A DNA stretch of 61,669 nt, filler included, from Stramenopiles sp. TOSAG23-6 (GCA_900128565.1; 13 parts of 13 records of this genome joined end to end with filler, not necessarily neighbours in it); one strand, 5' to 3'. Counted from the whole stretch's first letter, positions 1-61,669 are shown. Made by a program: numbers and translations. Notes: generated from the sequence alone by a model not told the origin.

Positions 1-74
1 AAATCTAAAAAAAATTGTTAGGTACAAAATTTCGTACGAAAAAATAAATTCGAAAAAAAATAAATAAAACATAC

Positions 75-1454
75 ATGCTTTTTGCTTTTGACGATTTTCT
101 TTTTTTTGTTTTTGTTCTTTTTTCCTTTCTAAACGTCGGGCAATTTGTTTTCTTTTTTCCAATTCTTTTTTTTGTTTTTCTTTCAGTTTGAAATCATTAT
201 CTTTCATCTCTGTGAGTAAAGTATTTTTTTCGTATTGAACGTTTTGAAGTTTTGGAGGTTTTTGTGGTTTTTGTGGTTTTTGTGGTTTTTTTGGTTTTTG
301 TGTTTTTTTTGGTTTTTGTGGTTTTGGAAGTTTTTGTGGTTTTGGAAGTGTTTGTTGTTTTTCAAGTTTAGGAGGTTTTTGTGGTGGTGTTTGATGATGT
401 TTTTGTTCTCCACTAAAATTTGTTTTTTTACCAGAGATATAAATATTATGTATGTTTTGTTTACTATTATATTGATTTGCTGACAATTGAGTAGGTGATG
501 GTGGAGGAGTTGTTGTATCATTAGTACTACTCATAGTTATAAATGTAGACATTGTTTTCTCTCTACCCTTCCCACTTTCAATATTTGGAGGTGGAGGTGC
601 GTTTAGATTTTTGTCTGAAGTATTTATATTTGAATCATTCTCAGTAATAGTTTGTATCTTCAAATGTCGTTTTGCTTTTGGTTTGATGGTTGAATTTGTG
701 TCTGATATAAGTACAGTATCTATAGGGTTTATAGGATCTATAGGATCTATAGGGTTAGGGTTTATAGTCTCATTTATAGTCTCATCTATAGTATCAACAG
801 CATCTATTCTCTCATGTTCTCTTAGATCTTTCTTGGATGATTTGTTTGAGGATTTGTTTGAGGATTTGTTTGAGGATTTCTTTTCTGTTGATGGTATTGT
901 TTGCTTTGTTTTCTTATTAGTTTTCTTTGGATTTGTTTTACGTTTTTGTGATTTTTCCTTTCGAAACCATTTCAAAAGATTTCCAGATGATTGCCGTCTC
1001 TCTGTAATTACATTGTCATTACTTATATTTGTAACATTTGTAACATTTTTTTTAGTTGGTGTCGGTGATATTGTTGCCTTGAAACGTTGTTTTGGATCGT
1101 GAGGTTGATTACGTGGACTTCTATATTGACGTAAACGTTGTTTCGGATTATGTGGTTGATTACGTGGACTACGATGATGATGAAGTAAACGTTGTTTTGT
1201 ATCATGGGATTGATTACGTGGACTCATTGATGTTCTATGTAGTATAGTTCTATCTATAATTGTTCTATCTTTTGAATGTTTTGTTGTACTATTGGAAAGA
1301 ATTGCAGTTTCGGCAACTCTTCGTTTTCCAACACTAAGTAGAGCTCGTTCTCGTGTTGTAGCAAGTTGTTGTCGAATGGAAGCAAATGGTTGGATCTTTT
1401 GTCTCATTTCAATTAAACTTACTCCTACACCTACACCTACACCTACAGCAACAC

Positions 1455-1496
<42 letters not shown>

Positions 1497-1797
1497 GTTG
1501 ATATGACTGTGTATTTTGTATATGTTGTGCATGTTGTTTTGGATTTCCTAGTTTTTGAATGTAAGCAGGATTGTTTGATAATAGTTGTGTTGTTTTATTA
1601 TCGTCATATCCTAAATAATCCAAAGCAGCAGCTTGTTGGGCTATTACTTGATCACGAAAACTAATCTGACTTCTTAATTTGTCAATGAGAGACTCTTTTT
1701 CATTTACTAATGTTTCCTGTACTGTGTGGACAATAACATGATACTATACATTTGTTTTGTTAGGTACAACATTTCGCACAAAAAAAAAAAAAAAAAA

Positions 1798-1828
<31 letters not shown>

Positions 1829-2838: not shown

Positions 2839-2872
<34 letters not shown>

Positions 2873-3646
2873 AAAAAAACAAACATGTCGACATATTGTG
2901 AGATGTGATATGAAACGCTTTGGACATTTCTACTAACTTTCGTCTTGATATTTTTAGCACGATTTGCATATTTAAGTGTATTCAATGTTTCTTCAAATGA
3001 AGATGCTGCGGGTGATACATTTGCAATCCTATTGTATACAGAAATATTAAAAAAATTGAAAAAATGTTAGGTGTATATTTTGATAAAAATTTTTTTTGAA
3101 TTTTTTTTTTTTTTTTTGAAATTTTTTTTTTTTTGAAAATTTTTTTTTGAAATGTGTTGTGATGGTTTGGATTAGAATTAGGTTTTTACATACATTACAG
3201 TTCTACAATTTCCTCCTAATGAATCTTTTAATAAACGTGTCAATTTTGAATCTCTGTAATTGACATATGCGCCACTAGAGCCCATTACTAAAGCATTAAT
3301 ACAATTACCCAATGCCAATAAAGAACGGTTAATGTTTGCTCCTTCTATATTGTAAAAAAATATATTTGTGTTTTGTTAGCTACGATATTTCGTACGAAAA
3401 AAAAATTGAAAAAAAAAATTGAAAAAAAAATATATTTTTTTTGTTTTTTTACTTAGGTACAAAATTTCGTACGAAAAAAAAAATTGAACAAAAATAAAAC
3501 ATACCTAATAATCGAATTCCTCTATTACTTGTTCTTGATGCTCGTTCACTTCCTGCCAAGTCTATCAAACTTAATTTTCCTACTTTTAAATTATTTCCCA
3601 TTCCAACTATTTTGTCATTATACTCGACTAATACTTGAAGAATTGC
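75..3646 (-). CDS. Kinesin-8 family (KIF18/KIF19-like) motor protein, partial, multi-exon
   Basis: Spliced translation gives AILQV...[78 protein letters not shown], then coiled coil and a low-complexity tail. Exons 3646-3505, 3344-3194, 3028-2885, 2774-1877, 1716-75. The N-terminal half of the motor is missing. Confidence 0.9.
1717..1876 (-). other. Intron, family architecture, GT-AG ends
   Basis: CAT|GTATGT...TGTACCTAAC...CAGTACAG|GAA restores the frame; the AG sits at the same position as the AT of other family members. Confidence 0.8.
2775..2884 (-). other. Intron, GT-AT ends
   Basis: GAC AT|GTTTGT...TGTACCTAAC...CACAATACAT|G ATT gives the kinesin-8 neck [16 protein letters not shown]. 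Confidence 0.8.
3029..3193 (-). other. Intron, GT-AG ends
   Basis: GTA AT|GTATGT...ACAATAG|G ATT rebuilds the conserved RTVMIANVSP and fixes the donor cut as AT|GT. Confidence 0.9.
3345..3504 (-). other. Intron, GT-AG ends
   Basis: TTA G|GTATGT...ACAATATAG|AA rebuilds RLLEGANIN. Confidence 0.9.
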
Positions 3647-3824
3647 ATGTATTGTGAAAAAAACTGTCAACATGAAAACACATTGTTAGGTATAAAATTG
3701 TTTTTTTTGGGAAATCAAAAAAAAAAAATATAAAAAAAAAAAAAAAAATTCTACCAAAAAAAAAAAAAATAAATAAAAAAAATAAAAAAAAAAATAAAAT
3801 AAAAAATAAAATAAAAAAACATAC

Positions 3825-4580
3825 ACGGATTTTCCCACTCGTCATTTCGTTTTTCTTGATCCGTTTCTTCTTCTCGGTATTTTTTGAAATATTTTGTTTT
3901 TGTTATACTAGCTCCATTAAATGCGCTTCCAGCCAAAGGATGTATTGTAAAAAATATTTTTTTGTAAAAAAATTATTTTTTGTTTAGGTACAAAATTTTC
4001 AAAAAAAAAAAAATTAAATTTGAAATTAATTGTGAAAACGTACATGCACCTGCTTACCTTCTGCTAAATGACGCCATTTTTGGTATACCCCTGGATGCAT
4101 TTCATGAAAGGGTGAGTTAACATCAATTTTATACCAAAAAATCTTTTCTCGGTGAGAATCATGTAATCAAAGGAAAATATTTCATTTGTTTTTTTGTTAG
4201 GTACAAAATTTACTACGAAAATAAAATTGAGTTTTTTTTTTTTTTTGAAACGGACATGAGTATTGTCCCAGCGGAAGTATAAATCACCACCACCACTATC
4301 TTTTGGTACCGTCCAATGATCTTTCAAAGGTGGAATCATATAATCAATTTTATCCGTCCACACTGCGTTGCCTTCTTCATCTTTTGCTTCTCCTTGAACA
4401 ACAATTTTTTTAGATGGCATATTTTTAGGTATAAAAAAAATGGTACGGCCGAGATAACCCTCGAAATACATTTTCACTTTTCCTTTGACTTGAGCTTGTG
4501 CCCAAAATAATTGTGTTTCCCATTCTACAAAGTTATTTTCTTCTACTGGAATAATTCTCTCGTAAATCATTCCTGGATTA
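3825..4580 (-). CDS. GOLD-domain-like protein, partial, multi-exon
   Basis: GGGDLYFRWDNTH|DSHREKIFWYKIDV resembles the GOLD C-terminal motif (xFDNxxS...K.V.Y). GT-AT introns at 4161-4255 and 3940-4043 keep the frame. Confidence 0.6.
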
Positions 4581-4663
4581 CTGTATTGTAAAAAAATATA
4601 AAATTTCAAATTTTGTTTAATTAAAAAAAAAAAAAAAAAAAAAAAAAATTTTTTTTTTTTTTT

Positions 4664-4763
4664 NNNNNNNNNNNNNNNNNNNNNNNNNNNNNNNNNNNNN
4701 NNNNNNNTTAATTAATTAANNNNNNNNNNNNNNNNNNNNNNNNNNNNNNNNNNNNNNNNNNNN
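4664..4763. other. Artificial contig spacer. Identical spacers at 9421-9520, 14177-14276, 18932-19031, 23686-23785, 28439-28538, 33190-33289, 37940-38039, 42690-42789, 47440-47539, 52188-52287, 56932-57031
   Basis: 44 N + TTAATTAATTAA (stops in six frames) + 44 N, recurring every ~4.75 kb. Confidence 0.99.
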
Positions 4764-5239
4764 TGCAACACTTCTGAATTTCATCTTTAAAGATATACGT
4801 GTAGTTCTCTTGAATAAAAACTTGCGCGTAAAGTTGACTTAATTGTGACGATTCTTCTTGACTAAGTAGACGATTGTCAACCTACTACAATAATATTGTA
4901 AATAATTATATAGTGATGTCGAGATGGTGTGTGTGAAAAAAAATGTGGATGCGATGTCGATGGATGAATTAAATTTTTGCTACTCANNNNNNNNNNNNNN
5001 NNNNNNNNNNNNNNNNNNNNNNNNNNNNNNNNNNNNNNNNNNNNNNNNNNNNNNNNNNNNNNNNNNNNNNNNNNNNNNNNNNNNCAAGAAACGTTAAAAA
5101 GTTCGCTCATCTTCTCAAACGAATCCAAAAAATTTCAAAAAAATCCCAAAACATTGGATTTGAATCCTGCATCGGTTGGAAAATCGTATCCTGCACAATA
5201 TAATCTGCTAAAGGCTGTATTTTGTACCACGAAACAAAA

Positions 5240-7151: not shown

Positions 7152-7284
7152 GTACTCGCACTTGGTAATTCATTATAATATAACCTAGCAATCAATATAT
7201 CGGTTCAAGAAGTTGTTTATAAAAAGACGTATAAAATAAAAATTGTTTATTCGTATGTTTTTCTACTTTGTTTTTAGCAAAACT

Positions 7285-9411: not shown

Positions 9412-9577
9412 GTAAGATGCNNNNNNNNNNNNNNNNNNNNNNNNNNNNNNNNNNNNNNNNNNNNTTAATTAATTAANNNNNNNNNNNNNNNNNNNNNNNN
9501 NNNNNNNNNNNNNNNNNNNNATTTTGTACCTAACAAATTTTCAAAATTTTTTTTTGAAATATTTTTTCACAATACAT

Positions 9578-14111: not shown

Positions 14112-14276
14112 GTATGTTTTATTTTTTTTTAACAAAAAAATCGAATTTATTTTTCGTACGAAATTTTGTACCTAACNNNNNNNNNNNNNNNNNNNNNNNN
14201 NNNNNNNNNNNNNNNNNNNNTTAATTAATTAANNNNNNNNNNNNNNNNNNNNNNNNNNNNNNNNNNNNNNNNNNNN

Positions 14277-16793
14277 TCTTACTTCTTATTATTTTACCAC
14301 GTTGATGGGCTTGTATATGCACTGCTGCTTTATGTTTCTTTTGTTTTTGAATTCTCCATTTTTCCCGTTTCCTTTTTTCATCATTTCTTTTTTTTTCTAA
14401 CTTGGCGTCACTCAATAATAAATTTGTTTTACATCTTGAAACTGAACCTCTTTGATGTTTCTGTATAACTATTGATGCTTTATCTCTCATTTTGTTTTGT
14501 AACAAAATTTCAGATTCCTTTGTTGCATTTGCTTGTAAAATACGTCGTATTTCTTTGGCTTTTATCTGACGTTGTTTACACTGTATTACTACTGATGCCT
14601 CATTCATTTTTTGTTTTTGTTGATTTAATAAGAGTTTCAAATCATTATTTCGTTTTTTTGTGATAAGAATACTTTTTGTATATCGGCTTTTAATGGCTTG
14701 TGGAGCTTCATTACTATTCCGTTTTTCCCAGGATAGTTTAACTGTATATCTTTTATTTTTCGTTTGTTTTGNTTTGTCATGTTCCTCTATAATATTGTCT
14801 ATTTCTTGTAATGTATATTTTTTCATTCCCATAGAATGTCCATGACAATTAGAAATATCAATGCTTCCAACAGCACATATTTTCATTGGTATTTTGGTTT
14901 GTAGACAAATTATTAAGTGAGTATCATTAGTAATTGGGTCATCATTGACACATAGCCAAAATACTTGTTCAATTGTTGATTCTTGACTAGTCTTATTATC
15001 ATTTATTATTTGTATATTTCGTGATTTTTGATGTCTATGTAGTGGTGTATTTTGGTGAATGTATTCTATGTCTTTAACAGGATTCAGTATAGTTTTGTTA
15101 TCTTTATGAAATGTAATATTTGGAATAGTACAAAACACATTACCTGAATTTTTCATTGAATTCTCATTATTTTGAGTATTATACATACTATTATCAATAC
15201 TACTACTTGTATTCATTGAATTTGTTGAAACAGTAGTAGCAGAAGTAGAGCCACTACTAGTATCACTACTACTAGTATCACTACTACTAGTATCACTACT
15301 ACTTGTATCACTACTACTTGTATCACTATTACTAGTATCAATACTAGGATTATCACCACTACTGCTTTTATCACTTGCTTTTAAAGTATTATCTTGACTA
15401 CTATTCTTTTTAGTAGTAACAAAATTTGTACTCTTTTCTTTAACAATATTTGTACTACAACTTTGTACGTGTATTCTTATCCAATTACCACCTGGTTTGA
15501 CACGTGTCGTTCTTCTAGATACCATCCCACGATACGCAGATGAAATTTGCGTTGATGATTTATGACTATGCTTTTTTCTTTCAATTTGTTGTGGTATACA
15601 TTGTGGATAAATATATCAAATTTGAAATGTATGAATACAAAAATAATAAAAATTATAAGTACAAAATTTAAAAAAAAATAGAATTCAGAAATGAAAATGT
15701 ACATGACGTCACTATGACGAAGTTGTCTCCCCCGTTCTATTCTTTGAATGAGGATGGTTGCTCTTAAAGTTTTCATTTCATGAACTATTTTTTTACGTAA
15801 TGAACGTCCACGATGTCTTGCTTGAATGTATGATGCAATTGTATGTGCGTCTTTTATGTAAGGGTGAAGAAAATATCAAATTCTATTTCTATTGTTAGAT
15901 ATTTAATTTAGTACGAAAAACAAAAACTCAAATTTGAATAATACATTTGAATTATACATTTGAATAATACATTTGAATTATACATTTGAACAATACATTT
16001 GGAATTTCTAATGAAAACATACATATGTTTTGGATGTCGCCAGGGACGCCATCTTCTTGTTGCATTTGTCCAGAGTCCAACTTGAATAAAATCATCTGTA
16101 CCTTTTTTCTTACCTAAAACTTCATCATCAAGTTGAACTTCGTTTTTCAAATCAAAAGCATTTTGAAATAATCCACCAACTTCATCAAAGTCATCGCCCC
16201 ATNTTTTGTGAACAAATATTTCAAACATTCAACTTTTTCTGTTAGGTATAAAATGTACNAAAAAAAAAGCNATACANTANGGTTAGGGTTGAAAACGTAC
16301 ATATTTCTCCAGCACCATACGCATCCATATTTTGTTCTATATTTTGATCACTTGATTCATTTTTTTTATAAATAGTATGGTTATCAAATGGATCAACTTC
16401 ACCACTTACATAACTCAAATCATCATCCGAATGAAATATAAAACTATTTTGTGAACTTTCCAAGACAGTACTATTTAATGAGTTTTTACTATATGCACTA
16501 TGAATTCTTTTATGTCTATGGCCTAATTGTTTTTGATGTTGCTGATAGTTTTCTGGACGATCATACGTCGAATGATTTGTTTTTCTGTTCCAATAATAAA
16601 AAGAACCTTCGTTGTATTCGTCAGCAATCTTTTCCCAGTCAGTTTTCAATTCCANTGGACGATTCAAATAACTTTTCTTACTTATTGGATTCCACCAAAC
16701 TTCATTTCCGTTTTCATCAAAATACAAAACAATCTCTTGATTTTGAGATATGTGAGGTGTAGAATTATGAATTATATCACTGGAACTAATCAT
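14277..16793 (-). CDS. WW-domain and multi-IQ-motif protein, 3'-truncated
   Basis: WEKIADEYNEGSFYYWNRKTNHSTYDRP; many IQ...RG motifs. GT-AT introns 16201-16300, 15856-16022 and 15596-15702 chain the exons in frame. Confidence 0.8.
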
Positions 16794-17124
16794 GTCTTAC
16801 GTTTGTTGAAATTCTTTTATATATGACTTAAAAGTGTCGTATTTTGTTGCATGGTGTTTATGTTTGTTTTTTTAATATAAATAAATATTCAATAACATAT
16901 TGTACACGTAATACACTATCCTACACAAATGTTCAAAGTATACAATTTCTATACAAGTTTACTGTGTTCCAAGACAAAAACAAGAAAAAACATAACACAA
17001 AGTACGTAATAGAAAACATATATATATCACTATTTTGGCAGTTACAACTTTGTAAGTTGCAACCCTAACCCTAGAAATAATACTCTACTTTAAAAATTGC
17101 CAATAGAATAACATTTAATTTTTA

Positions 17125-17796
17125 TTAACTCAACACGGACCACCATAGCGTAAAGCATAATANCAGTCCAATCAATATGGCTATAATGGTATTATCCCGA
17201 GTTTTCTTATTTTTAATGCGATGAATTAATTTCTTTGCACCAGGAAAAACACTTCCTATTTCTACTAATTTTGAACTCGCTGCAGTAAAAATTCGTCTTT
17301 GAGCAAAAATCTCATTTCGTGCTTCCATTGCATTATATATTATGTCTCCAGTCATTCTACTAGACTTATTGATTGCTCCTCGTTCACGTAAGAGTTCATC
17401 TGTCTCTCCTCTCATTCTATCCTCATCAGACAAATGAGCGTTTTTGAATAAAGAATTACTTTCTTGTTTTCTTCGTATACTAGTCTGAGTTCTGTTAAAG
17501 AATGTCCGATTGTCCCGTAATATATCCTTATATCTACGAAGGAGAGCCATGTTTGATACTTTTTTACACTGCTCAGTGCAGCTAGACATTTGTGTGACAG
17601 TGGCCTGTAATTTCTCAAGGAGTTCACTGGTTTCCGAAGCAGTGCGGGTCTCAGAACCTCTTGATCCACTCGATTGACTCTCAGCATCACCAAATGTTAA
17701 AGAACTATTGGAATCAAATTTTGAATATTCTTGTAGTTTAGATTCAAGGTCTCTCTCTAACTTTCGTGCTCGTTTCTTCAAATTTTCCCACAGCAT
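17125..17796 (-). CDS. GOSR1: Golgi SNARE Gos1/GS28, intronless
   Basis: WENLKKRARKLERDLESKL, LLRRYKDILRD, Qb-SNARE motif, C-terminal TM helix. Confidence 0.9.
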   Translation of the reverse strand: MLWENLKKRARKLERDLESKLQEYSKFDSNSSLTFGDAESQSSGSRGSETRTASETSELLEKLQATVTQMSSCTEQCKKVSNMALLRRYKDILRDNRTFFNRTQTSIRRKQESNSLFKNAHLSDEDRMRGETDELLRERGAINKSSRMTGDIIYNAMEARNEIFAQRRIFTAASSKLVEIGSVFPGAKKLIHRIKNKKTRDNTIIAILIGLXLCFTLWWSVLS

Positions 17797-18301
17797 TTTT
17801 TAAACACTTTGATGGAAAACGTACTCTTCTGTCAGTTGCCTTTGTACACTACAAATGAAACCTTTTCTACACTGTATGCCTATATATGCTATACAAGACA
17901 ACGTAGAGAAACTTATATTCTAAAAAAACTAAGTATGTAAAGACAATGTTCCTTTGACAATTTGTATTTATTTTTATACCGGTCTACTACGTAAACTACG
18001 TGTACAGTACTACAAAAAGGTACCAGGAATCCAGGATCTCAGATCCGGAACTTCAGGAACCCTAACCCTAATTTTCTTTTATATATATTCGTCAGAATCA
18101 GTTTCTTGCACAGACTCTTCTGGAGTCACCATAATATTATGATCTTGAAGGTGCTGGAGTTGCGGTACCATTAGAAAGTACTATCAAAAATTAAAATTGA
18201 AGAAAAAAAATAAAAAAATTCATCATTTATCAGAATTTCAAAAACAATCAAAAATATAAAAAAGACATTTTTTTGAGCTCTTCACAAAAATATTCAAAAT
18301 A

Positions 18302-18931
18302 TTATGCATCAGTGTCCATCTTATTCTCATCGCCTTCTTGTACAGCAGATAAAAAATCAATTAATTTTTGACCTTTGACATATTCAAACGGTTTGTCTTT
18401 CCCAACTACTGCGATAGAAATGTTTTTAGCTGTTAAATCACCATTTTCGTGAACGCAACCTTTCAAAGAACGAATGGCATATATTGTAGGAAAATATTTC
18501 AGATGCAATTATTTTGTTAGGTATTTTTGTTGATGATTTTTTACACGAAAAAAAAAATATGTAAAACAATGAAATAATGAAAACATACATGTTTGACTAC
18601 TTCATCCACAGACATATTATCAAAGCCAGTCTTACCATCAAGATAAAATTTGTCAATATACGTTTTTGCAGATTGTGCTCGAGCGCCTATTGCCATGTAG
18701 AGTGAACATATATTTGAAATTTGAAAAATATGTTAGATATGAAAATAATAGTAAATTTGAAATTGAAAGATGAAAAATGAAAACATACATTGCCGAGTAT
18801 TCATAATAAGACCCAGAAGGTGATGTTTCATATAAATGTGCACCAGTACGATCGTAACCAGCGACTAGAAGTCCAACACCAAATGGTCGATTATTCCAGG
18901 TCGAGTATGCAATGCAGGCTGTCCGTCAGGG
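18302..18931 (-). CDS. PSMA1: 20S proteasome subunit alpha-6 (alpha type-1), 5'-truncated
   Basis: [62 protein letters not shown]; two introns. Confidence 0.9.
18479..18588 (-). other. Intron, GT-AT ends
   Basis: AAA CAT|GTATGT...TACCTAAC...CAATATAT|GCC gives VKHAIRSL. Confidence 0.85.
18695..18788 (-). other. Intron, GT-AT ends
   Basis: GCA AT|GTATGT...TATCTAAC...CTCTACAT|G GCA gives YSAMAIGAR; the nearest downstream AG is out of frame. Confidence 0.85.
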
Positions 18932-19087
18932 NNNNNNNNNNNNNNNNNNNNNNNNNNNNNNNNNNNNNNNNNNNNTTAATTAATTAANNNNNNNNNNNNN
19001 NNNNNNNNNNNNNNNNNNNNNNNNNNNNNNNTTTTGTACCTAACAAATTTTTTTAGATTTTTTTTGAAATATTTTTCCAAAATACAT

Positions 19088-19650
19088 ATCGAATGATTGT
19101 ATTAATATTATATCTTTTATTATCATTTATCGAACCACCTGCTTGGTGTGCTTCAAGTATGTTTTATGTTTCTTGAATTTTGAGTGTAATTTTGTTTTCG
19201 TAGTAAATTTTGTACCTAACATATTTTTTAAAATTTTTTTTGAAATATTTTTCCAAAATACAATCTCACCCAGTGAAGATTCAGATAATTCAGTGGACAT
19301 TGATACAAAAATACCTGGATGTGACAAAGTACCTCGTTGGCCTATTCCACAATTGTCACCCAATGTTGCTCATATTTATGAAATACTTTGTCTTGTGTTT
19401 TTTACATGCGAACTTTTATTAAAAAAAACGTTTCAAGGTAGAGAATTATTTGTCCGGAATCGCTGGCATTTAGTTCAAATGTGTATTATTTCGTTTTCAT
19501 TTGGCTGTGTTTTGGCGTCAATACTCTTACCCTATTTACCCCATCGCCCAGCGTCGATTCTTCGTCCACTACTTTTTATTGCAATGAGTGAAAAAGTCAG
19601 GAACGAGGTGGCTACACTAGTCAGAGCATTACCCAAGTTTTTGGATGCAT
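19088..19650 (+). CDS. Two-pore channel (TPC)-like fragment (S1-S4)
   Basis: LSFIEPPAWC, IYEILCLVFF..ELLLK, ASILRPLLFI....VRNEVATLVRALPKFLD. Confidence 0.75.
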
Positions 19651-19793
19651 GTATGTTTTTTTTTTTTTTTGTATGAATTTTTTTTTTATAAAAATTTTGT
19701 ACCTAACAAAAATTTTTTTTTTTTGAAATATTTTTTTTCGTACGAAATTTTGTACCTAACATTTTTTTTTTGAAATATTTTTTTAAAATACGT

Positions 19794-46578: not shown

Positions 46579-46618
<40 letters not shown>

Positions 46619-46633: not shown

Positions 46634-47354
46634 GCCTAATCATTTCGATAGAAATTGGCCACGTTTAAAAACATCAAATATAAACATGACAATGAATAAT
46701 CCATCTGCAAAATCACAAAAAATACCACAAGTAAAAATATTAAGTACAAATGTAAGTACAAATAATTTGAATACAATTTTACGAGATGGAACAAATGAAA
46801 TTGTTCGTCGACATTCTAAATCTCCTGTTGTTGTGCCTGTTTCTGTTGCAGCTGCTGCAACTGCCGCAGCAACACGTGATTGTGATGTGAATATTCCAAC
46901 AATGAATGCAACTTCTCCAATCAGTATGTTTTATCATGAAATTTAAATGTATTATTCAATTCTAGTTTTGTTTTGTACCTATTTTTTTTATCATTTCAAA
47001 TCTTATCCTTATGAAATGTTTTAGTTTTGTACCTAACGAATTGTTTACAGCACATATATTCTTTTTAATACAGATGCACATGTTGTTACATGTATGTTTT
47101 AATTTTTTTTCAATTTTGAATTTATTTTTTTTTATAAAAATTTTGTACCTAACAAATTTTTATGATTTTTTTGAAAAATATTTTTCCAAAATATATCAGG
47201 TCGAGATTTGTTATTGAGAGGTCCTACATTATTTTCAGCACATTTAAAATATGGGGAATTTCGACCAACACCTGATGTTTTGTCTAAAGTTCTTTCCCTT
47301 GGCATTCCTCCTCGTATAGTATCGTCGTTGCCTATACAGACACATAATGTAGGT
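46634..47354 (+). CDS. Exons of an unidentified protein, including an 18-nt microexon (47074-47091)
   Basis: Frames chain across introns 46924-47073 and 47092-47196. Confidence 0.45.
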
Positions 47355-47539: not shown

Positions 47540-47650
47540 ATTGAAATGAATATTGAAATGAATATTGAAATGAATATTGAAATGAATATTGAAATGAACA
47601 TTGAAATGAATATTGAAATGAATATTGAAATGAATATTGAAATGAATATT
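47540..47650. repeat. 12-bp intronic tandem repeat (ATTGAAATGAAT) x~9
   Basis: Directly visible, just inside a TMEM94 donor. Confidence 0.9.
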
Positions 47651-47661
47651 AAAAGACATAC

Positions 47662-50600
47662 ATACAAAACATCAACCAAAATGGAGTAGAAAAAACTTTC
47701 ATAAAAGATGTATCAAATTGAGATCCATTGGAATAAAACATGGAAAATATAAACTGACAAAACCCTGAAGTAACTGCAGAAATTATCCAAAATATATTAG
47801 ACCAAGGAGGACCAGATAAGATACTTTTTACACGATACAGTAAAGTCATTGATAATACAATTAATAAGTTTGATAGACACCACAATGCAACTGATCTTGC
47901 CTGTCTCACAATAATCTGTCCTTCAACACTTGATCCTTTCAATTCTTCTATAAATGAAATTTCACTCAATGATGTTCCCCATGTATTGTTGAAAAAATAT
48001 ATTTTTTTTTTGTCAGTAAAAATAAAAAACATCGTAAAGTACAAAATTTCCACACGAAACATAATAATGAAATGAATGATGAAAACGTACATAAAATGTG
48101 TTTGAGTACATCTTTACTAGCCTCTGGTGATAGTTCAAGTAAAGCCCAAATAAATATCACTACAGTTGAGGCTGCAATGGGAATACAACGAATTAATAGA
48201 ATGAATAAAATACGAGATCTTTTTATCACAATTTCATCATTTACAAATCTTTTCTGTGGAACTCTCAGTCGACTCATAGCCTGAGCCTCAACTGGTGTAA
48301 ATAAAATAGGAAATAATAAAAGAGGTATTTGGAAACAACACAACCAAAAGCAACACATTGGAGTTAACACAATAGGTATATCAAATAGTTGACCTATGAG
48401 TATTGTTAGACCACAACAGACTTGGGAAAAAAATCCAAACAGAATACTCTGCCGGCAATTATATATTGTGAAAAAATATTTGTATAACCCTAACCCTAAT
48501 AACAATTCATTAAGTACGGAATTTCATACAAAACAAAATTTAGGTAGAACAATCAATTTTGAAAACATACATGTAACATGCGTCTTCCCTCTTTAATCAA
48601 CCGAACAATAACTGATATCGATTGTAAACTGTCAACTCTTAATTCACAACCTAAGGAACAGATTGTATTATTTAATCTTAATTCGCGTCTTGAAGGTAAA
48701 GTTGAACCTACATTCACTTTATCAGGATCATCATACACTGCAATTGACAGATCTGCACAACGTAAAACTGATGCATTTGATGCATACATTGAACTTCCAA
48801 GGGCTCCGACAACTTCACCATTTTGTTGCATAATATTTATCATTTGTTTTACTCGTGATGGTGTACTATCCGTAAATAAAGAGACGAGCAATGGAACATT
48901 ATCTACATTTTCTAAATGTTCACGAATGGCAGGTATCCCATGAGGTAGTCTAGCCCTTGCATGTATTGTGAAAATTTTTTTTTTTAGGAAAACACAAAAT
49001 ATTCGTTAGGTACAAAATTTACTATAAAAAAAATAAATTTAAAATTAATTGTCAAAACGTTCATCCCAACGATCTGTACCTAATCTTTTGCTCGCTTCAT
49101 TATCTTTTTCACTCAGTGAAATTGCAGTGTTCCAACCAGTATCTAAACCCATTTTTGCGGCGAATGGTTTCGCTTGACGGAAACTTTTTTCAGAGAAAAC
49201 AACAAAACGGATTCCTGCTGTTGTGACATCATCAATAACTTTGTGCAAACCTGTCTTCGGTTGCAGACGGCACGCAATCCTGTTTTGTGGAGAAATTAAA
49301 AACAAAAGTTAGGTAACATTTTTGGTACAAAACAAAATACATTTGAAATCAATAATAATACATTAAATAGATTAGAAAAGATTATCAAATATTGATCTAC
49401 AAAAAAAAAAATTAAATGTTTTTCGTTAGGTACAAAATTTCATACAAAAAAAAATCAATAATAATAACGTACATACCTAAGAAAATGAAGCCATCTGACA
49501 TCATATCTCTCACAGCTTTTTGTGCTTTTGAAAAGGTTTGTCCCACATTATTTGAAAGTTTTGGCGTTGTAAATACATCTGAAGTATTCACAGGAGATTT
49601 CGATGTTTTTACACGTAATCTTTTTGTATTTATGTCTTTTGTTTTTTTATGTTTTATATTTTGATCAGAAAGTGTGAAATTTCTATTGGATGACAATTTT
49701 TCTGATGTATTCAAAACTTTTTCATCTTGAGTTTTTTTTTGATCTTCATTTATACTTTTATTTTCTTCATTTTTAGTTTGTTGAGTATCACTAGCTTCCA
49801 ATATATTCGTCATATTACTCATTCTTATATGACTTTGCATATTTCCATTTTGAGATAATTTTAAAAAATGTTTCCGATCAGGAGCAGGAACGGGTAAAAA
49901 TCCAAATGCCACTGCGTCAAGATCCTCTTGCTCCCAGCGCATACACATTGCTTGAAGACCTCTTCGGCAGGCATCTCCGAGGGGACAGATACACTCCCCA
50001 TCCCAATAATGGATTGTACAAAAATATTCTACAATTAGGTTTGGGTTAGGGTTGTACAAAAATATTCTAAAAATGTATTACATTTATAAATAAGAATTTG
50101 AAATTCATGATGGAAACAATACATTTGAAATTCATGATGGAAACATACATGAGCACAGTTTGCTAATAAAGTTTTTGGAGACCCAGCACTCATTAACTTC
50201 AATAAACCAACATTTCTACAATCTTCTGTGACTTTTAATGTCAGCTGTGGAACACAAAGCTTCAACAAACCTCCATCAGAAGAATCTAAAACAGAAATAG
50301 ATTCAAATAAATCATTTCTTGTTGTAGACATTGTTTGCTCTGAATTTCGTGTTTTAGACGTTTTCTGAAACGTTTCATGAGTTTTATCATCTGATCCCAT
50401 CAACTGGAATTCTTGTAAAACACGAAAACAAGAAACATCAGATCCGACAAATCCCATATACTGTGAAAACAATGTAGTAAAAAATTCGTTAGGTAAAATA
50501 TTTTCATAGAAAAAAAATGTAGGTAAAAAATTAAATTTTGAAAACTTATATTTCTCGTGCTAAACTTGCCATGGCAAGGCGTATTGGAGGAGAAATACTG

Positions 50601-52132
50601 TCAATCACTAAATCAGTCAAATATTTTGTCTTTGATGGGACAACATTTGCATGTAACATCAAACCCATTCCTAAAGGCTTCAAGGAAGACAAATGTATTT
50701 TGGAAAAATATTTCAAAAAAAAAATGTTAGGCACAAAATTTTTATAAAAAAAAAAATCCAATTTGAAAAAAAATAAAACATACATGTCTATGCCATTGAA
50801 TTGATTCAAACTTTACTTTATTTTTACTTTCAGGATCAGGATGTAAATCTAAAATAGTATGTACTTTTAGGAAAATATTTAAAAAAAAATGTTAGGTACA
50901 AAATTTCGTACGAAAAAAAACATATGAGTTTTTTTTTTATAACGTACATGAGTGCCTTCATCACCATTTCCTGTATAACTCTCCTCTTTGATACAGACTT
51001 CTTCTACTAGTGGAGTTCGTTCTCGTACAGCTTCCGAATCAATACAGCATAATACTGTGATGCTTCCAAGTTTATCAATGAGACCAAGAGGATATGTATT
51101 TTGGAAAAATATTTCAAAAAAAAAACTAGAATTTGTTAGGTACAAAATGTTTATAAAAAAATAAATTCAAAATTGAAAAAAAATATAACATACATGGATC
51201 AGCATCAGGTGGAAGAGACGCTAAAGTCAATCGATTCCATTTCTTAGTGAGACCAAAACTCATGTATAATGAAAAAATATTTAAAAAAAAAAATGTTAGG
51301 TACAAAATTTTTATAAAAAAAAAATGTAGACAAAAAATTGAAATGAAAAAATATTTAAAAAAAAAAATGTTAGATACAAAATTTTTATAAAAAAAAAATG
51401 TAGACAAAAAAATGAAATGAAAACGTACATCAATACATGCCTTAACATTAACGATATAATAACCATACAGCGTTTAGGTTTACTCATATTATCATCCAAT
51501 ACATTCTCCGTACCATTAGGGTTAGGGTTATTATCAGACAATGATCGAGATAGTGATGGCAAGGCTCCTGAGTGTGTCAAAATGTTTGAAGTAGCTACGG
51601 AATCTAAAGTTAACAACATTGGAGGACTTAATAATGAGCACATGCATATATTGTGAAAAAAAAAATTGTATAAAATTCGTTAGGTACAAAATTTGGTACA
51701 AAAAAAAAATTGTATAAAATTCGTTAGGTACAAAATTTGGTACAAAAAAAAATTTGAAATTGATAAAATGTACATATACTCACAGATAATGGCTTTATAA
51801 TAAAAAGTCTGACGGCATTTTCAGATGTTTTATCATCTGATCGTCTTACCCAATGGAGTATGAAAAATATTTCAAAAAATGAAAATCGTTAGGTATAAAA
51901 TTTTTTGAAAAAAAAAAATAAATTCGAAATTGAAATGAAAACGTACATGAAGTATTGATAATAGTAAACTACATATTGTACTTATTATTAATAAATATCG
52001 TGCATTTCGTTGAGCTTCCTTCAAGCGCGACCGAAAAGCTGTTGGTCTATAACTAGTATTTGGTTTTAATGCAGCATCTAATAAATTTAATAAAAACGTT
52101 TCCTGCATTACAAACTGATCATACGGTGCCAC
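47662..52132 (-). CDS. TMEM94: TMEM94 (KIAA0195) P-type-ATPase-like protein, internal part, 13 exons
   Basis: LGSITVLCCID, WHRHLSSLKPLG, YWDGECICPL, GIRFVVFS..KPFAAKMGLDTGWNTAISL, ARLPHGIPAIREHLENVDNVPLLVSLFTD. 12 complete introns: 47981-48090, 48461-48570, 48961-49062, 49280-49472, 50009-50148, 50456-50549, 50693-50783, 50859-50947, 51094-51193, 51262-51428, 51646-51773, 51853-51946. Confidence 0.92.
48961..49062 (-). other. Intron, probable GA-AT ends
   Basis: TGG GAT|GAACGTTTT...TGTACCTAAC...CACAATACAT|GCA AGG GCT AGA. Confidence 0.6.
50456..50549 (-). other. Intron, probable AT-AT ends
   Basis: GAA AT|ATAAGTTTT...TACCTAAC...CAGTATAT|G GGA TTT gives LAREMGF. Confidence 0.65.
50693..50783 (-). 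other. Intron, GT-AT ends
   Basis: AGA CAT|GTATGT...TGCCTAAC...CCAAAATACAT|TTG TCT gives the conserved WHRHLSSLKPLG. Confidence 0.88.
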
Positions 52133-52341: not shown

Positions 52342-53185
52342 TCGCTTTATTGAAACATTAAAACAGTTACAAGAAGATTTCCCAAGACCAATTTTGATGG
52401 AAAATGCAAAGAGTTTATTTGATAAAATCGGTTTAAATTTGTCCCTTCAATATAAGTTGGAACCTGAAGGAGTTCTGGAAAGACAATTATCATTAGCCAA
52501 TGTATGTTTTTATTTTTTTTTTAACAAAAAAAATCGAATTTTTTTTCGTACGAAATTTTGTACCTAACAAATTTAAGGTTTTTTTTTTTTCAAATATTTT
52601 TCCAAAATACATAGATGTTCTACGTCGACTTTGGCTTTGAAAAGACACTGTTCTTCCCTATCTTTGCTAGTGGAATCTGCTATTAGAGACGAATCCTATA
52701 GTGTAAAAGATAAATGTCATACTGTCTTATCGTGTATGTTTCTTTTTTCACTTTTTTTTCAGTTTCGAATTCATGTTTTTTTTTATAAAAATTTCGTACC
52801 TAACAAATTTTACAAAAAAAAAATATTTTTTCATAATACATGTTTATATCCTTTTGTAGTAGAGCCACCAGATTTTGAACCTAATATTTCATCAAAATAT
52901 TGTAATGACGATAAAAAAGAATATGTATCATTTGAAAATTTTTGTGTTTTTGACGACGATTACGAGATTCAAAAATCTAGGATGATTGATGATAAAAAAA
53001 ACAATAATTATGCACATGAAAAATCTAGGATGATTGTTGTAGTTATTGGTGGTGTGTCTTATTCAGAAGTTAGAGAAATGAAGCGTTTAAGCAAGTATAT
53101 GAACAAACAAATAATTTTATTAACCACTGGGATATTGACACCCCTCCAACATTTACAAAGATTTGGAGGAATCTCAAAATTTTAA
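52342..53185 (+). CDS. Sec1/Munc18 family protein, C-terminal exons
   Basis: RMIVVVIGGVSYSEVREMKRLS....QIILLTTGILTP; introns 52502-52612 and 52734-52841. Confidence 0.85.
52502..52612 (+). mobile_element. Representative near-consensus copy of the Introner-like GT-AT intron family
   Basis: AT|GTATGTTTTT...AATCGAATTTTTTTTCGTACGAAATTTTGTACCTAACAAATT...AAATATTTTTCCAAAATAC AT|; matches copies in unrelated genes (e.g. 14112-14176, 29293-29400, 38040-38099, 51094-51193). Mobility is inferred. Confidence 0.6.
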
Positions 53186-55211: not shown

Positions 55212-55641
55212 TATAAAACACTTTACACAGTCGCTACCGCATGCAATATAAACTTAAAAACGAGTTTCTAGATAATCCTTATTTTTACTAGTATTACCTG
55301 TAGGCTGTAGTAGTGACGATATACCGTAATGTTGAGTTGACATGAAAATTCTGACTCGAAACCGCCGGTACCGGGTACTCCAGGTAGTACCACGAAAAAA
55401 AAAAAAAAATAAAATAAAATGAACTCTCAACGGAATAATGATGTAATCAAATCATACTTGCATCATACTTGTTATATATGAAACATAAAAAAAAAGTAAA
55501 AAAAAAAAAAAAAGTCCTGCCAGGGAGTCGAAGAACCCTAACTGTTTTTATAAGATGTCATTATCAATTTTTTTTTTCATTCAAAAACAAAATAAAACAA
55601 AAAAAACAAAAACAAAAACCAAAACATAAAAAAAAAAAAAA

Positions 55642-55714
55642 AGTCCTGCCAGGGAGTCGAACCCTGAATCTTCTGCTCCGTAGGCAGACGCCTTATCCAT
55701 TGGGCCAACAAGAC
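55642..55714 (-). tRNA. tRNA-Arg (anticodon ACG)
   Basis: GTCTTGT TGGCCCAATGGATAAGGC G TCTGC CTACGGA GCAGA AGATT CAGGG TTCGACT CCCTG GCAGGAC T folds as a cloverleaf and is followed by a poly-T Pol III terminator. Confidence 0.95.
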
Positions 55715-56008
55715 TTGTTTTGTACTATCTGCTCCGTAGCGATAGTCTTCTGCTCCGTAGGCAACAAGACATTTTCTATAGTATCCGTTCCGTAGTGACA
55801 CGACTTCCATTGGGCCAACAATTTCGAATAAACGACATCATCAAGTTTTATAAAGAAATTTTTTTTTCCCCCTAGTCACTAACATTCATAAAGAACCAAT
55901 ATGATTTATAGTTCAAATTGTTGTAGAGAAGAAAATACATAAAACTTTGAATGTTTCATCAAATACAATTTAATAATTTAACATTCATTATGATTCAAGA
56001 ATTTTGAT

Positions 56009-56931: not shown

Positions 56932-57031
56932 NNNNNNNNNNNNNNNNNNNNNNNNNNNNNNNNNNNNNNNNNNNNTTAATTAATTAANNNNNNNNNNNNN
57001 NNNNNNNNNNNNNNNNNNNNNNNNNNNNNNN

Positions 57032-59548
57032 TCTTACTTCTTATTATTTTACCACGTTGATGGGCTTGTATATGCACTGCTGCTTTATGTTTCTTTTGTT
57101 TTTGAATTCTCCATTTTTCCCGTTTCCTTTTTTCATCATTTCTTTTTTTTTCTAACTTGGCGTCACTCAATAATAAATTTGTTTTACATCTTGAAACTGA
57201 ACCTCTTTGATGTTTCTGTATAACTATTGATGCTTTATCTCTCATTTTGTTTTGTAACAAAATTTCAGATTCCTTTGTTGCATTTGCTTGTAAAATACGT
57301 CGTATTTCTTTGGCTTTTATCTGACGTTGTTTACACTGTATTACTACTGATGCCTCATTCATTTTTTGTTTTTGTTGATTTAATAAGAGTTTCAAATCAT
57401 TATTTCGTTTTTTTGTGATAAGAATACTTTTTGTATATCGGCTTTTAATGGCTTGTGGAGCTTCATTACTATTCCGTTTTTCCCAGGATAGTTTAACTGT
57501 ATATCTTTTATTTTTCGTTTGTTTTGNTTTGTCATGTTCCTCTATAATATTGTCTATTTCTTGTAATGTATATTTTTTCATTCCCATAGAATGTCCATGA
57601 CAATTAGAAATATCAATGCTTCCAACAGCACATATTTTCATTGGTATTTTGGTTTGTAGACAAATTATTAAGTGAGTATCATTAGTAATTGGGTCATCAT
57701 TGACACATAGCCAAAATACTTGTTCAATTGTTGATTCTTGACTAGTCTTATTATCATTTATTATTTGTATATTTCGTGATTTTTGATGTCTATGTAGTGG
57801 TGTATTTTGGTGAATGTATTCTATGTCTTTAACAGGATTCAGTATAGTTTTGTTATCTTTATGAAATGTAATATTTGGAATAGTACAAAACACATTACCT
57901 GAATTTTTCATTGAATTCTCATTATTTTGAGTATTATACATACTATTATCAATACTACTACTTGTATTCATTGAATTTGTTGAAACAGTAGTAGCAGAAG
58001 TAGAGCCACTACTAGTATCACTACTACTAGTATCACTACTACTAGTATCACTACTACTTGTATCACTACTACTTGTATCACTATTACTAGTATCAATACT
58101 AGGATTATCACCACTACTGCTTTTATCACTTGCTTTTAAAGTATTATCTTGACTACTATTCTTTTTAGTAGTAACAAAATTTGTACTCTTTTCTTTAACA
58201 ATATTTGTACTACAACTTTGTACGTGTATTCTTATCCAATTACCACCTGGTTTGACACGTGTCGTTCTTCTAGATACCATCCCACGATACGCAGATGAAA
58301 TTTGCGTTGATGATTTATGACTATGCTTTTTTCTTTCAATTTGTTGTGGTATACATTGTGGATAAATATATCAAATTTGAAATGTATGAATACAAAAATA
58401 ATAAAAATTATAAGTACAAAATTTAAAAAAAAATAGAATTCAGAAATGAAAATGTACATGACGTCACTATGACGAAGTTGTCTCCCCCGTTCTATTCTTT
58501 GAATGAGGATGGTTGCTCTTAAAGTTTTCATTTCATGAACTATTTTTTTACGTAATGAACGTCCACGATGTCTTGCTTGAATGTATGATGCAATTGTATG
58601 TGCGTCTTTTATGTAAGGGTGAAGAAAATATCAAATTCTATTTCTATTGTTAGATATTTAATTTAGTACGAAAAACAAAAACTCAAATTTGAATAATACA
58701 TTTGAATTATACATTTGAATAATACATTTGAATTATACATTTGAACAATACATTTGGAATTTCTAATGAAAACATACATATGTTTTGGATGTCGCCAGGG
58801 ACGCCATCTTCTTGTTGCATTTGTCCAGAGTCCAACTTGAATAAAATCATCTGTACCTTTTTTCTTACCTAAAACTTCATCATCAAGTTGAACTTCGTTT
58901 TTCAAATCAAAAGCATTTTGAAATAATCCACCAACTTCATCAAAGTCATCGCCCCATNTTTTGTGAACAAATATTTCAAACATTCAACTTTTTCTGTTAG
59001 GTANAAAATGTACNAAAAAAAAAGCNATACANTANGGNTAGGGTTGAAAACGTACATATTTCTCCAGCACCATACGCATCCATATTTTGTTCTATATTTT
59101 GATCACTTGATTCATTTTTTTTATAAATAGTATGGTTATCAAATGGATCAACTTCACCACTTACATAACTCAAATCATCATCCGAATGAAATATAAAACT
59201 ATTTTGTGAACTTTCCAAGACAGTACTATTTAATGAGTTTTTACTATATGCACTATGAATTCTTTTATGTCTATGGCCTAATTGTTTTTGATGTTGCTGA
59301 TAGTTTTCTGGACGATCATACGTCGAATGATTTGTTTTTCTGTTCCAATAATAAAAAGAACCTTCGTTGTATTCGTCAGCAATCTTTTCCCAGTCAGTTT
59401 TCAATTCCANTGGACGATTCAAATAACTTTTCTTACTTATTGGATTCCACCAAACTTCATTTCCGTTTTCATCAAAATACAAAACAATCTCTTGATTTTG
59501 AGATATGTGAGGTGTAGAATTATGAATTATATCACTGGAACTAATCAT
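57032..59548 (-). CDS. WW/IQ protein (duplicate copy)
   Basis: Same translation as 14277-16793. Confidence 0.8.
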
Positions 59549-59879
59549 GTCTTACGTTTGTTGAAATTCTTTTATATATGACTTAAAAGTGTCGTATTTT
59601 GTTGCATGGTGTTTATGTTTGTTTTTTTAATATAAATAAATATTCAATAACATATTGTACACGTAATACACTATCCTACACAAATGTTCAAAGTATACAA
59701 TTTCTATACAAGTTTACTGTGTTCCAAGACAAAAACAAGAAAAAACATAACACAAAGTACGTAATAGAAAACATATATATATCACTATTTTGGCAGTTAC
59801 AACTTTGTAAGTTGCAACCCTAACCCTAGAAATAATACTCTACTTTAAAAATTGCCAATAGAATAACATTTAATTTTTA

Positions 59880-60551
59880 TTAACTCAACACGGACCACCA
59901 TAGCGTAAAGCATAATANCAGTCCAATCAATATGGCTATAATGGTATTATCCCGAGTTTTCTTATTTTTAATGCGATGAATTAATTTCTTTGCACCAGGA
60001 AAAACACTTCCTATTTCTACTAATTTTGAACTCGCTGCAGTAAAAATTCGTCTTTGAGCAAAAATCTCATTTCGTGCTTCCATTGCATTATATATTATGT
60101 CTCCAGTCATTCTACTAGACTTATTGATTGCTCCTCGTTCACGTAAGAGTTCATCTGTCTCTCCTCTCATTCTATCCTCATCAGACAAATGAGCGTTTTT
60201 GAATAAAGAATTACTTTCTTGTTTTCTTCGTATACTAGTCTGAGTTCTGTTAAAGAATGTCCGATTGTCCCGTAATATATCCTTATATCTACGAAGGAGA
60301 GCCATGTTTGATACTTTTTTACACTGCTCAGTGCAGCTAGACATTTGTGTGACAGTGGCCTGTAATTTCTCAAGGAGTTCACTGGTTTCCGAAGCAGTGC
60401 GGGTCTCAGAACCTCTTGATCCACTCGATTGACTCTCAGCATCACCAAATGTTAAAGAACTATTGGAATCAAATTTTGAATATTCTTGTAGTTTAGATTC
60501 AAGGTCTCTCTCTAACTTTCGTGCTCGTTTCTTCAAATTTTCCCACAGCAT
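59880..60551 (-). CDS. GOSR1: Golgi SNARE Gos1 (duplicate copy)
   Basis: Same translation as 17125-17796. Confidence 0.9.
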   Translation of the reverse strand: MLWENLKKRARKLERDLESKLQEYSKFDSNSSLTFGDAESQSSGSRGSETRTASETSELLEKLQATVTQMSSCTEQCKKVSNMALLRRYKDILRDNRTFFNRTQTSIRRKQESNSLFKNAHLSDEDRMRGETDELLRERGAINKSSRMTGDIIYNAMEARNEIFAQRRIFTAASSKLVEIGSVFPGAKKLIHRIKNKKTRDNTIIAILIGLXLCFTLWWSVLS

Positions 60552-61039
60552 TTTTTAAACACTTTGATGGAAAACGTACTCTTCTGTCAGTTGCCTTTGT
60601 ACACTACAAATGAAACCTTTTCTACACTGTATGCCTATATATGCTATACAAGACAACGTAGAGAAACTTATATTCTAAAAAAACTAAGTATGTAAAGACA
60701 ATGTTCCTTTGACAATTTGTATTTATTTTTATACCGGTCTACTACGTAAACTACGTGTACTACAAAAAGGTACCAGGATCTCAGATCCGGAAGCTTCAGG
60801 AACCCTAACCCTAATTTTCTTTTATATATATATTCGTCAGAATCAGTTTCTTGCAAAGACTCTTCTGGATAATATGATGATCTTGAAGGTGCTGGAGTTG
60901 CGGTACCATTAGAAAGTACTATCAAAAATTAAAATTGAAGAAAAAAAATAAAAAAATTCATCATTTATCAGAATTTCAAAAACAATCAAAAATATAAAAA
61001 AGACATTTTTTTGAGCTCTTCACAAAAATATTCAAAATA

Positions 61040-61669
61040 TTATGCATCAGTGTCCATCTTATTCTCATCGCCTTCTTGTACAGCAGATAAAAAATCAATT
61101 AATTTTTGACCTTTGACATATTCAAACGGTTTGTCTTTCCCAACTACTGCGATAGAAATGTTTTTAGCTGTTAAATCACCATTTTCGTGAACGCAACCTT
61201 TCAAAGAACGAATGGCATATATTGTAGGAAAATATTTCAGATGCAATTATTTTGTTAGGTATTTTTGTTGATGATTTTTTACACGAAAAAAAAAATATGT
61301 AAAACAATGAAATAATGAAAACATACATGTTTGACTACTTCATCCACAGACATATTATCAAAGCCAGTCTTACCATCAAGATAAAATTTGTCAATATACG
61401 TTTTTGCAGATTGTGCTCGAGCGCCTATTGCCATGTAGAGTGAACATATATTTGAAATTTGAAAAATATGTTAGATATGAAAATAATAGTAAATTTGAAA
61501 TTGAAAGATGAAAAATGAAAACATACATTGCCGAGTATTCATAATAAGACCCAGAAGGTGATGTTTCATATAAATGTGCACCAGTACGATCGTAACCAGC
61601 GACTAGAAGTCCAACACCAAATGGTCGATTATTCCAGGTCGAGTATGCAATGCAGGCTGTCCGTCAGGG
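61040..61669 (-). CDS. PSMA1: Proteasome alpha-6 (duplicate copy), 5'-truncated
   Basis: Same sequence and the same two GT-AT introns as 18302-18931. Confidence 0.9.

Follow-up and report, generated by a model that had tools for sequence, protein, structure and literature searches.

Structure of the window

The window, that is the whole stretch of DNA analysed here, comprises 61,669 nucleotides from Stramenopiles sp. TOSAG23-6 (GCA_900128565.1), and our subject is a family of short repeated introns within it, most of which end in AT. The window is AT-rich (approximately 24–40% G+C) and is made of pieces of about 4.65 kb between N44-TTAATTAATTAA-N44 linkers, the first of which lies at 4664–4763 and the others every 4750 bases or so, the spacing declining slowly along the window from 4757 to 4744 bases. 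It reads as a chain of size-sorted short contigs, so adjacent pieces need not adjoin in the genome. Two pieces, 14177–18931 and 56932–61669 (offset 42755), are near-identical duplicates with N mostly at the same positions. The introns interrupt, among others, a P-type-ATPase-like gene and a proteasome alpha gene, and several further genes have no introns in the window (eIF5, a DnaJ/zuotin-like open reading frame and an ankyrin open reading frame).

Introns of the P-type-ATPase-like gene

Once 12 introns are removed, the P-type-ATPase-like gene (47640–52132, minus strand) encodes 1021 codons without a stop. The product, of 1021 residues, is collinear with a full-length homologue (P0122, EukProt 'g4610.t1', 1412 residues, with a weak Cation_ATPase_C match), with which it shares 48% identity across 1114 alignment columns. 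In the alignment to P0122, 11 of the 12 junctions have no gap of any kind within four residues; at the remaining one (51853–51946) a four-residue gap begins one residue past the junction. Tabulating termini by protein-to-genome alignment had been proposed in the initial annotation, made from the DNA sequence, and when this was carried out for the present gene 11 of the 12 introns proved to end in AT: nine are GT-AT and one GA-AT, one runs from ATAAGT to AT, and one is GT-AG.

The GT-AT introns of this gene, all on the minus strand (a slash marks the cut), are 51853–51946, supported by the P0122 alignment and by frame; 51646–51773, with a GTACAT donor and a junction PLSVSI/CMCSL that is gap-free against P0122; 51262–51428, with an internal tandem duplication and the gap-free junction RHVL/MSFG; 51094–51193 (gap-free, PPDADP/YPLGLIDK); 50859–50947 (GTH/TILDLHPDPES), in which an AG five nucleotides (nt) before the end goes unused; 50693–50783 (gap-free, WHRH/LSSLKPLG); 50009–50148, a diverged copy (gap-free, NCAH/YWDGECICP); 48461–48570 (EGRRMLH/NCRQ), which contains TTAGGGTTAGGG; and 47981–48090 (KHIL/WGTSL). 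The GA-AT intron (48961–49062, GTDRWD/ARARLPHG) has a GAACGT donor. In 50456–50549 the first base is A instead of G (aat/ATAAGT...CACAGTATAT/), and only 94-nt cuts yield LARE/MGFVG as in P0122, a GT reading being impossible. The GT-AG intron (49280–49472) follows an exon ending in AT, cannot slide to the left, and gives FIFLG/MIACR, the sequence of P0122 and likewise of a public model, P0121 (GSMAST32.ASY1.ANO1.1309.1). This public model contains 242 residues of a gene encoding at least 1021; it is confined to the part of the gene that two non-AG introns enclose, and the AG intron is the one intron that it crosses, which suggests that the non-AG introns were left out of it.

Removal of the introns from mRNA

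RNA evidence was sought in contigs of polyA seawater metatranscriptomes, from four runs (X1, X3, X4 and X6) aligned to 16281–18931; uncovered parts of this interval carry no weight either way. In the proteasome alpha gene, 110 nt (18478–18587) are skipped in RNA contigs of both X3 and X4, and 94 nt (18694–18787) are skipped in X4, each cut being movable by at most 3 nt. Within the movable range of both joints there is no GT-AG reading, the options being TA-TG, GT-AT, TG-YA and AT-AY. Another contig of X4 aligns from 16300 and has a loose end that is window 16170–16199; it joins 16300 to 16199/16200, so 16201–16300 is removed. The three introns, all on the minus strand and all keeping frame, are cat/GTATGT...CAATATAT/ (18479–18588, 110 nt), aat/GTATGT...CTCTACAT/ (18695–18788, 94 nt) and tat/GTACGT...CAAAANAT/ (16201–16300, 100 nt). 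The copies are removed precisely from mRNA, with the 5' cut between exon AT and GT and the 3' cut after the terminal AT. The initial annotation had named retention of such segments, or downstream AG use in transcripts, among the outcomes that would tell against it; in the RNA contigs of X3 and X4 the proteasome segments are skipped exactly.

A possible fourth junction at 18891/18892 was dropped, contigs diverging there carrying mismatches. The RNA contigs part from the window differently at 18877 and at 18891, and one X6 contig joins opposite strands; the divergence at 18877–18931 might stem from differences between strains, from a paralogue or from a chimera at the contig end.

Intron termini

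Support was obtained for 35 introns, namely 26 GT-AT, one GA-AT, one AT-AT, six GT-AG and one GT-AA. The 3' ends are thus AT in 28, AG in six and AA in one, so that the last base is T in 80%, G in 17% and A in 3%; the penultimate base is A in all 35, and the first two bases are GT in 33. Six candidates stand outside this tally (3647–3824, 24513–24603, 19651–~19793, 20966–21075, 21115–~21331 and 22015–~22255). The family-aligned 3' end is also YAT in all eight copies that are cut by contig ends.

Continuity of the open reading frame is insufficient by itself to fix the acceptors, because many introns are open in frame. The frames of the flanking exons were assigned by a codon model trained on the window's long open reading frames, and at family-aligned ends frame is kept in 30 of 36 candidates, compared with approximately 12 by chance, and in 31 once one donor is moved to the family-aligned GT. 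The AT ending of these introns is confirmed. The initial annotation had counted some 35–38 AT-ending introns and seven with AG among about 50, and the 28 and six found among 35 bear out that proportion; the six introns it had singled out hold, through RNA joints, P0122 junctions or frame, and its remark that AGs occupy the same motif position applies to three of the six AG endings: AATATAG (3345) and AATACAG (24747 and 47073).

That assembly or sequencing errors or mistraced borders have created the AT ends, the real acceptors being nearby AGs, is scarcely credible. The window does consist of short contigs of a fragmentary assembly with Ns and at least one probable mis-join inside a copy, and many introns have no in-frame stop near the 3' end, so that frame alone leaves several acceptors open. 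However, the cut falls exactly at AT in two RNA joints and in the join given by a loose end, the homologue pins eleven AT-ending junctions to the residue, T stands at the last base in 28 independent copies, and the AG five nucleotides upstream in 50859–50947 and 50456–50549 is out of frame or adds a residue.

Splice signals and register

Signal counts were taken over 32 introns. The first base is G in all 32 and the second T in 31, and 30 have the donor GTA(T/C)GTTTT. At the 3' end, position −1 is T in 27, G in four and A in one, position −2 is A in all 32, and position −3 is C or T in 31. In the upstream exon the third base from the end is a pyrimidine in 25, and the last two are AT in 27. 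A CTAA-type box occurs in every one of them, 16–62 nt before the 3' end and mostly 33–48 nt, and in 11 an AG between this box and the 3' end is left unused. The U12 branch TCCTTAAC has no match in the window, and the RTATCCTT donor occurs in none of the 32 introns. The yeast-like donor and the lack of U12 signals described in the initial annotation agree with these counts, with GTAYGT as the donor type; the branch-like element is the CCTAAC box further upstream and not the terminal AATAYAT.

Because the exon ends in AT before 30 of the 35 introns, most cuts slide by 2–3 nt, and complementary DNA alone cannot separate GT-AT from TG-YA or AT-AY. The true termini might accordingly be AT-AC, the intron beginning two bases earlier (ATGTATGT...), ending in ...ATAC and being removed by the major or the minor spliceosome: a 2-nt slide yields the same mRNA, and the copies 3647–3824 and 24513–24603 would regain frame with a cut after AC. 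We regard these termini as improbable. The 5' end would read ATGTAT, which fits neither ATATCC (U12) nor ATAAGT (U2-type AT-AC), whereas a perfect GTAYGT results if the intron starts at GT. AT-AC is excluded at 31942 and 52734, where the exon ends in ..caa and ..cgt and not in AT, and the GT-AG copies 24747–24855 and 49280–49472 follow exons ending in AT, cannot slide to the left and fix the exon end at AT and the intron start at GT. The window has no match to TCCTTAAC, a U12 branch box would lie closer to the 3' end than the present branch-like box does, and a chimeric contig accounts better for 3647–3824. The perfect donor, the non-AT exons and the unslidable GT-AG copies are the grounds on which the GT-AT register is preferred.

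A single repeat family

Seventeen aligned candidates share sequence over their whole length, with a start GTA(T/C)GTTTT(A/C), an internal (C)GTACGAAATTTTGTACCTAAC, a T run and an end GAAATATTTTT(C/T)CA(A/C)AATA(C/T)AT. A profile built from these 17 copies gives 63 nhmmer matches (E<0.01) in the non-duplicated portion of the window (1–56931), and the two-part 3' motif TTTGTACCTAAC..TTTTYCAMAATAYAT has 13 matches in the window versus 0.00 in 100 shuffles. Copies in different genes reach 93% pairwise identity (median 65.5%, compared with at most 62.5% in the shuffled control), and the median copy length is 109 nt. Judged by sequence, the introns are copies of one introner-like repeat family: many similar copies occur in unrelated genes, and splicing is precise in three cases by RNA, in 12 by the homologue and in 31 of 36 by frame. 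A single family explains the uniform intron motif. Introns of another kind were not found in the window, two inspected inter-reading-frame gaps being gene ends. The initial annotation was right as to the GT-AT introns and overlooked the single repeat family, the AT..AT repeat around it and the resulting ambiguity of the termini.

At least 11 of the profile matches are cut by contig ends, a sign that the assembly tends to break at the repeat. Internal tandem duplications of the element's central part, with a second CCTAAC-type box, occur in 38208–38375, 3345–3504, 19651–19793, 22015–22255 and 51262–51428. A partial copy at 20411–20452 (model positions 28–69) lies antisense to its neighbours and is the sole antisense match noticed among the 63.

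The AT at the exon ends before 30 of the 35 introns forms an AT..AT direct repeat with the intron end, and the consensus around the insertion point is cAT/g. Two deviant copies still match, with AA on both sides (19157, caa..CAA) and AG on both sides (3504, tag..TAG). A 2-bp AT target-site duplication at a cATg target is likely, if unproven.

The terminal inverted repeat of the element is limited to GTAT/ATAC. Removal by a non-spliceosomal route, either through pairing of the ends as proposed for euglenids and Amoebophrya or through excision of DNA from an expressed nucleus, would be suggested by the complementarity over 6 nt of AU/GUAU (5') and AUAC AU/ (3') and by the presence of the terminal GUAU/AUAC helix in several minimum-energy folds. 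Such a route is very improbable. The extended pairing of ends that is a trait of Euglena and Amoebophrya was not found, only 4–6 bases being complementary; the folds are no better than those of shuffles (z −2.06 to +0.72 in eight copies), and the Amoebophrya elements have inverted repeats of 8–20 nt and no common terminal motif (PMC7789003). The strongest conservation in the present family lies in the GTAYGT donor and the CTAAC box, which are spliceosomal signals, and the copies are present in assembled DNA and missing from polyA RNA contigs.

Introns in other genes

The remaining introns are supported chiefly by frame. On the plus strand, 31942–32063 (caa/GTACGT...CAATACAT/gag) keeps frame strongly and has no left slide, and 52734–52841 (cgt/GTATGT...TAATACAT/) slides to the left by one base only. 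The GT-AT intron 52502–52612 is the best match to the family model (nhmmer E 7.5e-14). In 19157–19263 (caa/GTATGT...AATACAA/) intron and exon both end in AA; 21758–21864, 22841–22938 and 47092–47196 are GT-AT. The GT-AG intron 46924–47073 (...TAATACAG/) has weak frame support owing to the short exon that follows, and this 18-nt exon (47074–47091) separates it from 47092–47196, so that an AG-ending and an AT-ending family intron flank it. The 3' part of a copy (...CCAAAATACAT/) lies at a contig end at 19032–19087, also on the plus strand, and seven further 3' ends of contig-cut copies are at 9577, 10150, 23553, 42633, 42885, 52133 and 52341.

On the minus strand, 24747–24855 (cat/GTACAT...CAATACAG/), supported by a chain of frames, has AG at the family's terminal position and cannot slide. 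The GT-AT introns of this strand are 24977–25079 (...CAATTCAT/); 29293–29400, which is 93% identical to the copy 50693–50783; 29737–29942 (206 nt); 30129–30238, the RRAM/SWHLGS intron of the initial annotation; 38208–38375, with its internal duplication; 4161–4255, with a GTCCGT donor; and 3940–4043. For 24513–24603 the frame is restored only if the acceptor is moved 2 nt upstream (to an AC) or 1 nt downstream, and for 1744–1876 an AG at 133 nt and an AT at 136 nt are both in frame.

Several minus-strand introns belong to a kinesin-like gene, in which Pfam searches of single short exons decided two junctions only, both of AG-ending introns. The Kinesin profile continues over the junction of 3345–3504 (tag/GTATGT...CAATATAG/) from 248+3 to 252; at 3029–3193 (...TACAATAG/) it passes from 300 to 301 with the AG acceptor, and an AT acceptor 15 nt upstream would insert five residues into the match. 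The intron 2775–2884 (cat/GTTTGT...CAATACAT/, YVDM/IASL) is supported by frame. The exons flanking 3647–3824 are out of frame with each other. Those downstream match Pfam Kinesin positions 204–327, and those upstream (to 4663 of the window) are not kinesin-like; a search for longer protein homologues with two supposed kinesin exons gave no match. The contig is probably mis-joined here inside a repeated intron.

Host organism

The eIF5 gene (36527–37894, minus strand) was used to place the host. Its product differs from EukProt 'GSMAST32.ASY1.ANO1.234.1' (P0002) only in two gaps within the sequence, one of 17 residues and one of 18. These two stretches, absent from the public model, lie in an open reading frame that is unbroken in the window; they were possibly predicted there as introns inside an exon. 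The other 119 homologues among the matches listed are either unnamed or stramenopile (oomycetes, diatoms, brown algae and chrysophyte-like organisms). In the eIF5 tree, the window and unnamed environmental sequences join a row labelled INCI, which we take to be Incisomonas, with support of 91/90 and on a long branch; the EukProt label GSMAST32 we read as MAST-3. No usable taxon came from a search of the protein atlas. On the evidence of its proteins, which match ones that EukProt names GSMAST32, the host is a stramenopile. An origin from a larvacean (Fritillaria), first suspected from the published majority of 3'AT, is ruled out by the nearest named eIF5 relatives, all of which are stramenopiles.

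An Rfam scan of the window gave no match except one tRNA, a tRNA-Arg (ACG) at 55641–55715 on the minus strand. The sequence (TTAGGG)2, with at most one mismatch, occurs at 30 sites in the window versus 0.10 expected (for example at 9727, 18060, 20606–20643, 22450–22473, 26114–26131, 29592–29609, 48488 and 51516). These sites are intergenic, within family introns or within open reading frames; 22450–22473 reads NPNPNPNP in frame.

Proposed explanation

With a probability that we put at roughly 0.78, the window comes from a MAST-3-type uncultured marine stramenopile whose genes have been colonised by one family of short elements of the introner kind, which are spliced as AT-ended introns. Each copy has its own 5' splice site, GTA(T/C)GTTTT, a branch-like box, (G)TACCTAAC, mostly 33–48 nt before the 3' end, and a T-rich tract, and ends in ...CA(A/C)AATA(C/T)AT. 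The element itself would supply the 5' splice site, and the duplicated AT target the 3' splice dinucleotide. The major (U2-type) spliceosome would remove the copies, still needing A at the second-last base and accepting T, G or A as the last, and the 3' site would be picked by context and not as the first AG past the branch. As the 3' end is not AG, a U2-type spliceosome that has become lax about the final base would be the simplest assumption. Such a relaxed rule had been suggested in the initial annotation, of which the real introns, the GTAYGT donor and the non-AG end are upheld, and the 're-wired' splicing system stays a supposition.

Several observations weigh against this explanation. 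The spliceosomal route itself is deduced from motifs. Frame is broken at family-aligned ends in five to six copies, and the GT-AT register is fixed only by exceptional introns, as most cuts slide. The RNA support consists of contigs, not reads, from two samples (X3 and X4) of one study; the 94-nt joint is a single contig with 33 nt on its shorter side and two mismatches on the other, and the contigs of X1 and X6, which belong to two other studies, lie on exons without any joint, which is uninformative either way. The 5' and 3' flanks do not match in five deviant copies, and they match beyond random pairing only at −1 (28 versus 23.9), so that a 2-bp target duplication is indistinguishable from a required exonic AT signal. 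Mobility we infer from the similarity of the copies alone, neither an empty site nor a transposase having been seen, and the element was found neither in JGI metagenome contigs (no match to the family motif) nor in viral contigs (no match).

A broader proposition is that a free-living stramenopile has evolved genome-wide non-AG splicing independently, in parallel to Fritillaria. Its spliceosome would still use the GU 5' end, the branch box and the penultimate A and would have ceased to read the final intron base, and this would have allowed a transposon whose duplicated 2-bp AT target provides the 3' splice site to become the source of nearly all introns; for this the odds seem to us evenly balanced. 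If it is true, the organism would rank as the first protist in which GT-AT introns predominate, and one family with uniform signals would provide a simple natural system for the study of 3' site choice without AG.

Comparison with known systems

The terminal AG of introns is among the most constant signals of eukaryotes, and a second, unrelated lineage in which AT is in routine use, with GT, a branch box and the penultimate A retained, would narrow down which contacts are dispensable. A family of introners with a non-AG 3' dinucleotide would be missed by surveys that depend on canonical annotation. Genes of this kind are broken up by gene finders that admit canonical sites only, and assemblies break, and probably mis-join, in the repeat; this may bear on functional and ecological inferences about these marine grazers, an abundant group.

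Introners, which are common in marine protists, have been described in Micromonas, Aureococcus, Chrysochromulina and Symbiodinium, among others, as hundreds of near-identical, short, AT-rich sense introns in unrelated genes; in some families the element contributes the 5' splice site and the target-site duplication the 3' site (PMC9860276, PMC12130899). The families described there are GY-AG with target duplications of 3–9 bp, whereas in the present family the terminal dinucleotide is AT and the duplication at most 2 bp. Surveys of introners start from annotated introns, and their curation accepts only AG and AC 3' ends (PMC9860276, PMC12130899). In the literature searched, including the MAST-genome papers PMC5778133, PMC12614181 and bioRxiv 2026.04.17.719054, supplements apart, the accessible text has no report of GT-AT introns in stramenopiles or other protists.

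Amoebophrya, a parasitic dinoflagellate and also a marine protist, has more than 60% non-GT-AG introns and repeated introns with direct repeats over their borders, for which a distinct mode of splicing has been proposed (PMC7789003). Direct repeats that overlap the borders of repeated introns are likewise found here. In contrast, the Amoebophrya introns have no common termini and form hairpins from inverted repeats of 8–20 nt (PMC7789003), whereas the present copies have uniform ends and a branch box.

ATAAGT is the 5' consensus of U2-type AT-AC introns. The copy 50456–50549 starts with this very sequence, but the terminal pair in the present family is G..T, and not the A..C of U12-type and U2-type AT-AC introns, and neither RTATCCTT nor TCCTTAAC is present.

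A lineage with a majority of non-AG introns was not known to the initial annotation, which is out of date in this respect, since two Fritillaria species have been published: 3'AT accounts for 44% of introns in Fritillaria pellucida and for 34% in F. borealis, in which 5% are canonical (PMC13326754). Non-AG 3' ends form the majority genome-wide in Fritillaria, 3'AT being the commonest, and YAY stands both before the 5' site and as the last three bases of the intron (PMC13326754). U12 has been lost in Fritillaria, whose introns are handled by a U2-type spliceosome and have been linked to insertions of introners or miniature inverted-repeat transposable elements, and a duplication of U2AF and changes in N6-methyladenosine of small nuclear RNAs are reported (PMC13326754, PMC11282704). 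The two systems are alike in YAY at both sites (here the last three intron bases are Y in 31, A in 32 and T in 27 of 32 introns, respectively). They are unlike in their hosts, a chordate there and, by its eIF5 relatives, a stramenopile protist here, and in their 5' ends, which are mostly AG in F. borealis (5% GT/AG), whereas the present donor is GTAYGT, with GT in 33 of 35. Intron ends in Fritillaria are very diverse, whereas termini in the window are far less so and one repeat family makes up nearly all introns, so that the present introns offer the cleaner test case of the two.

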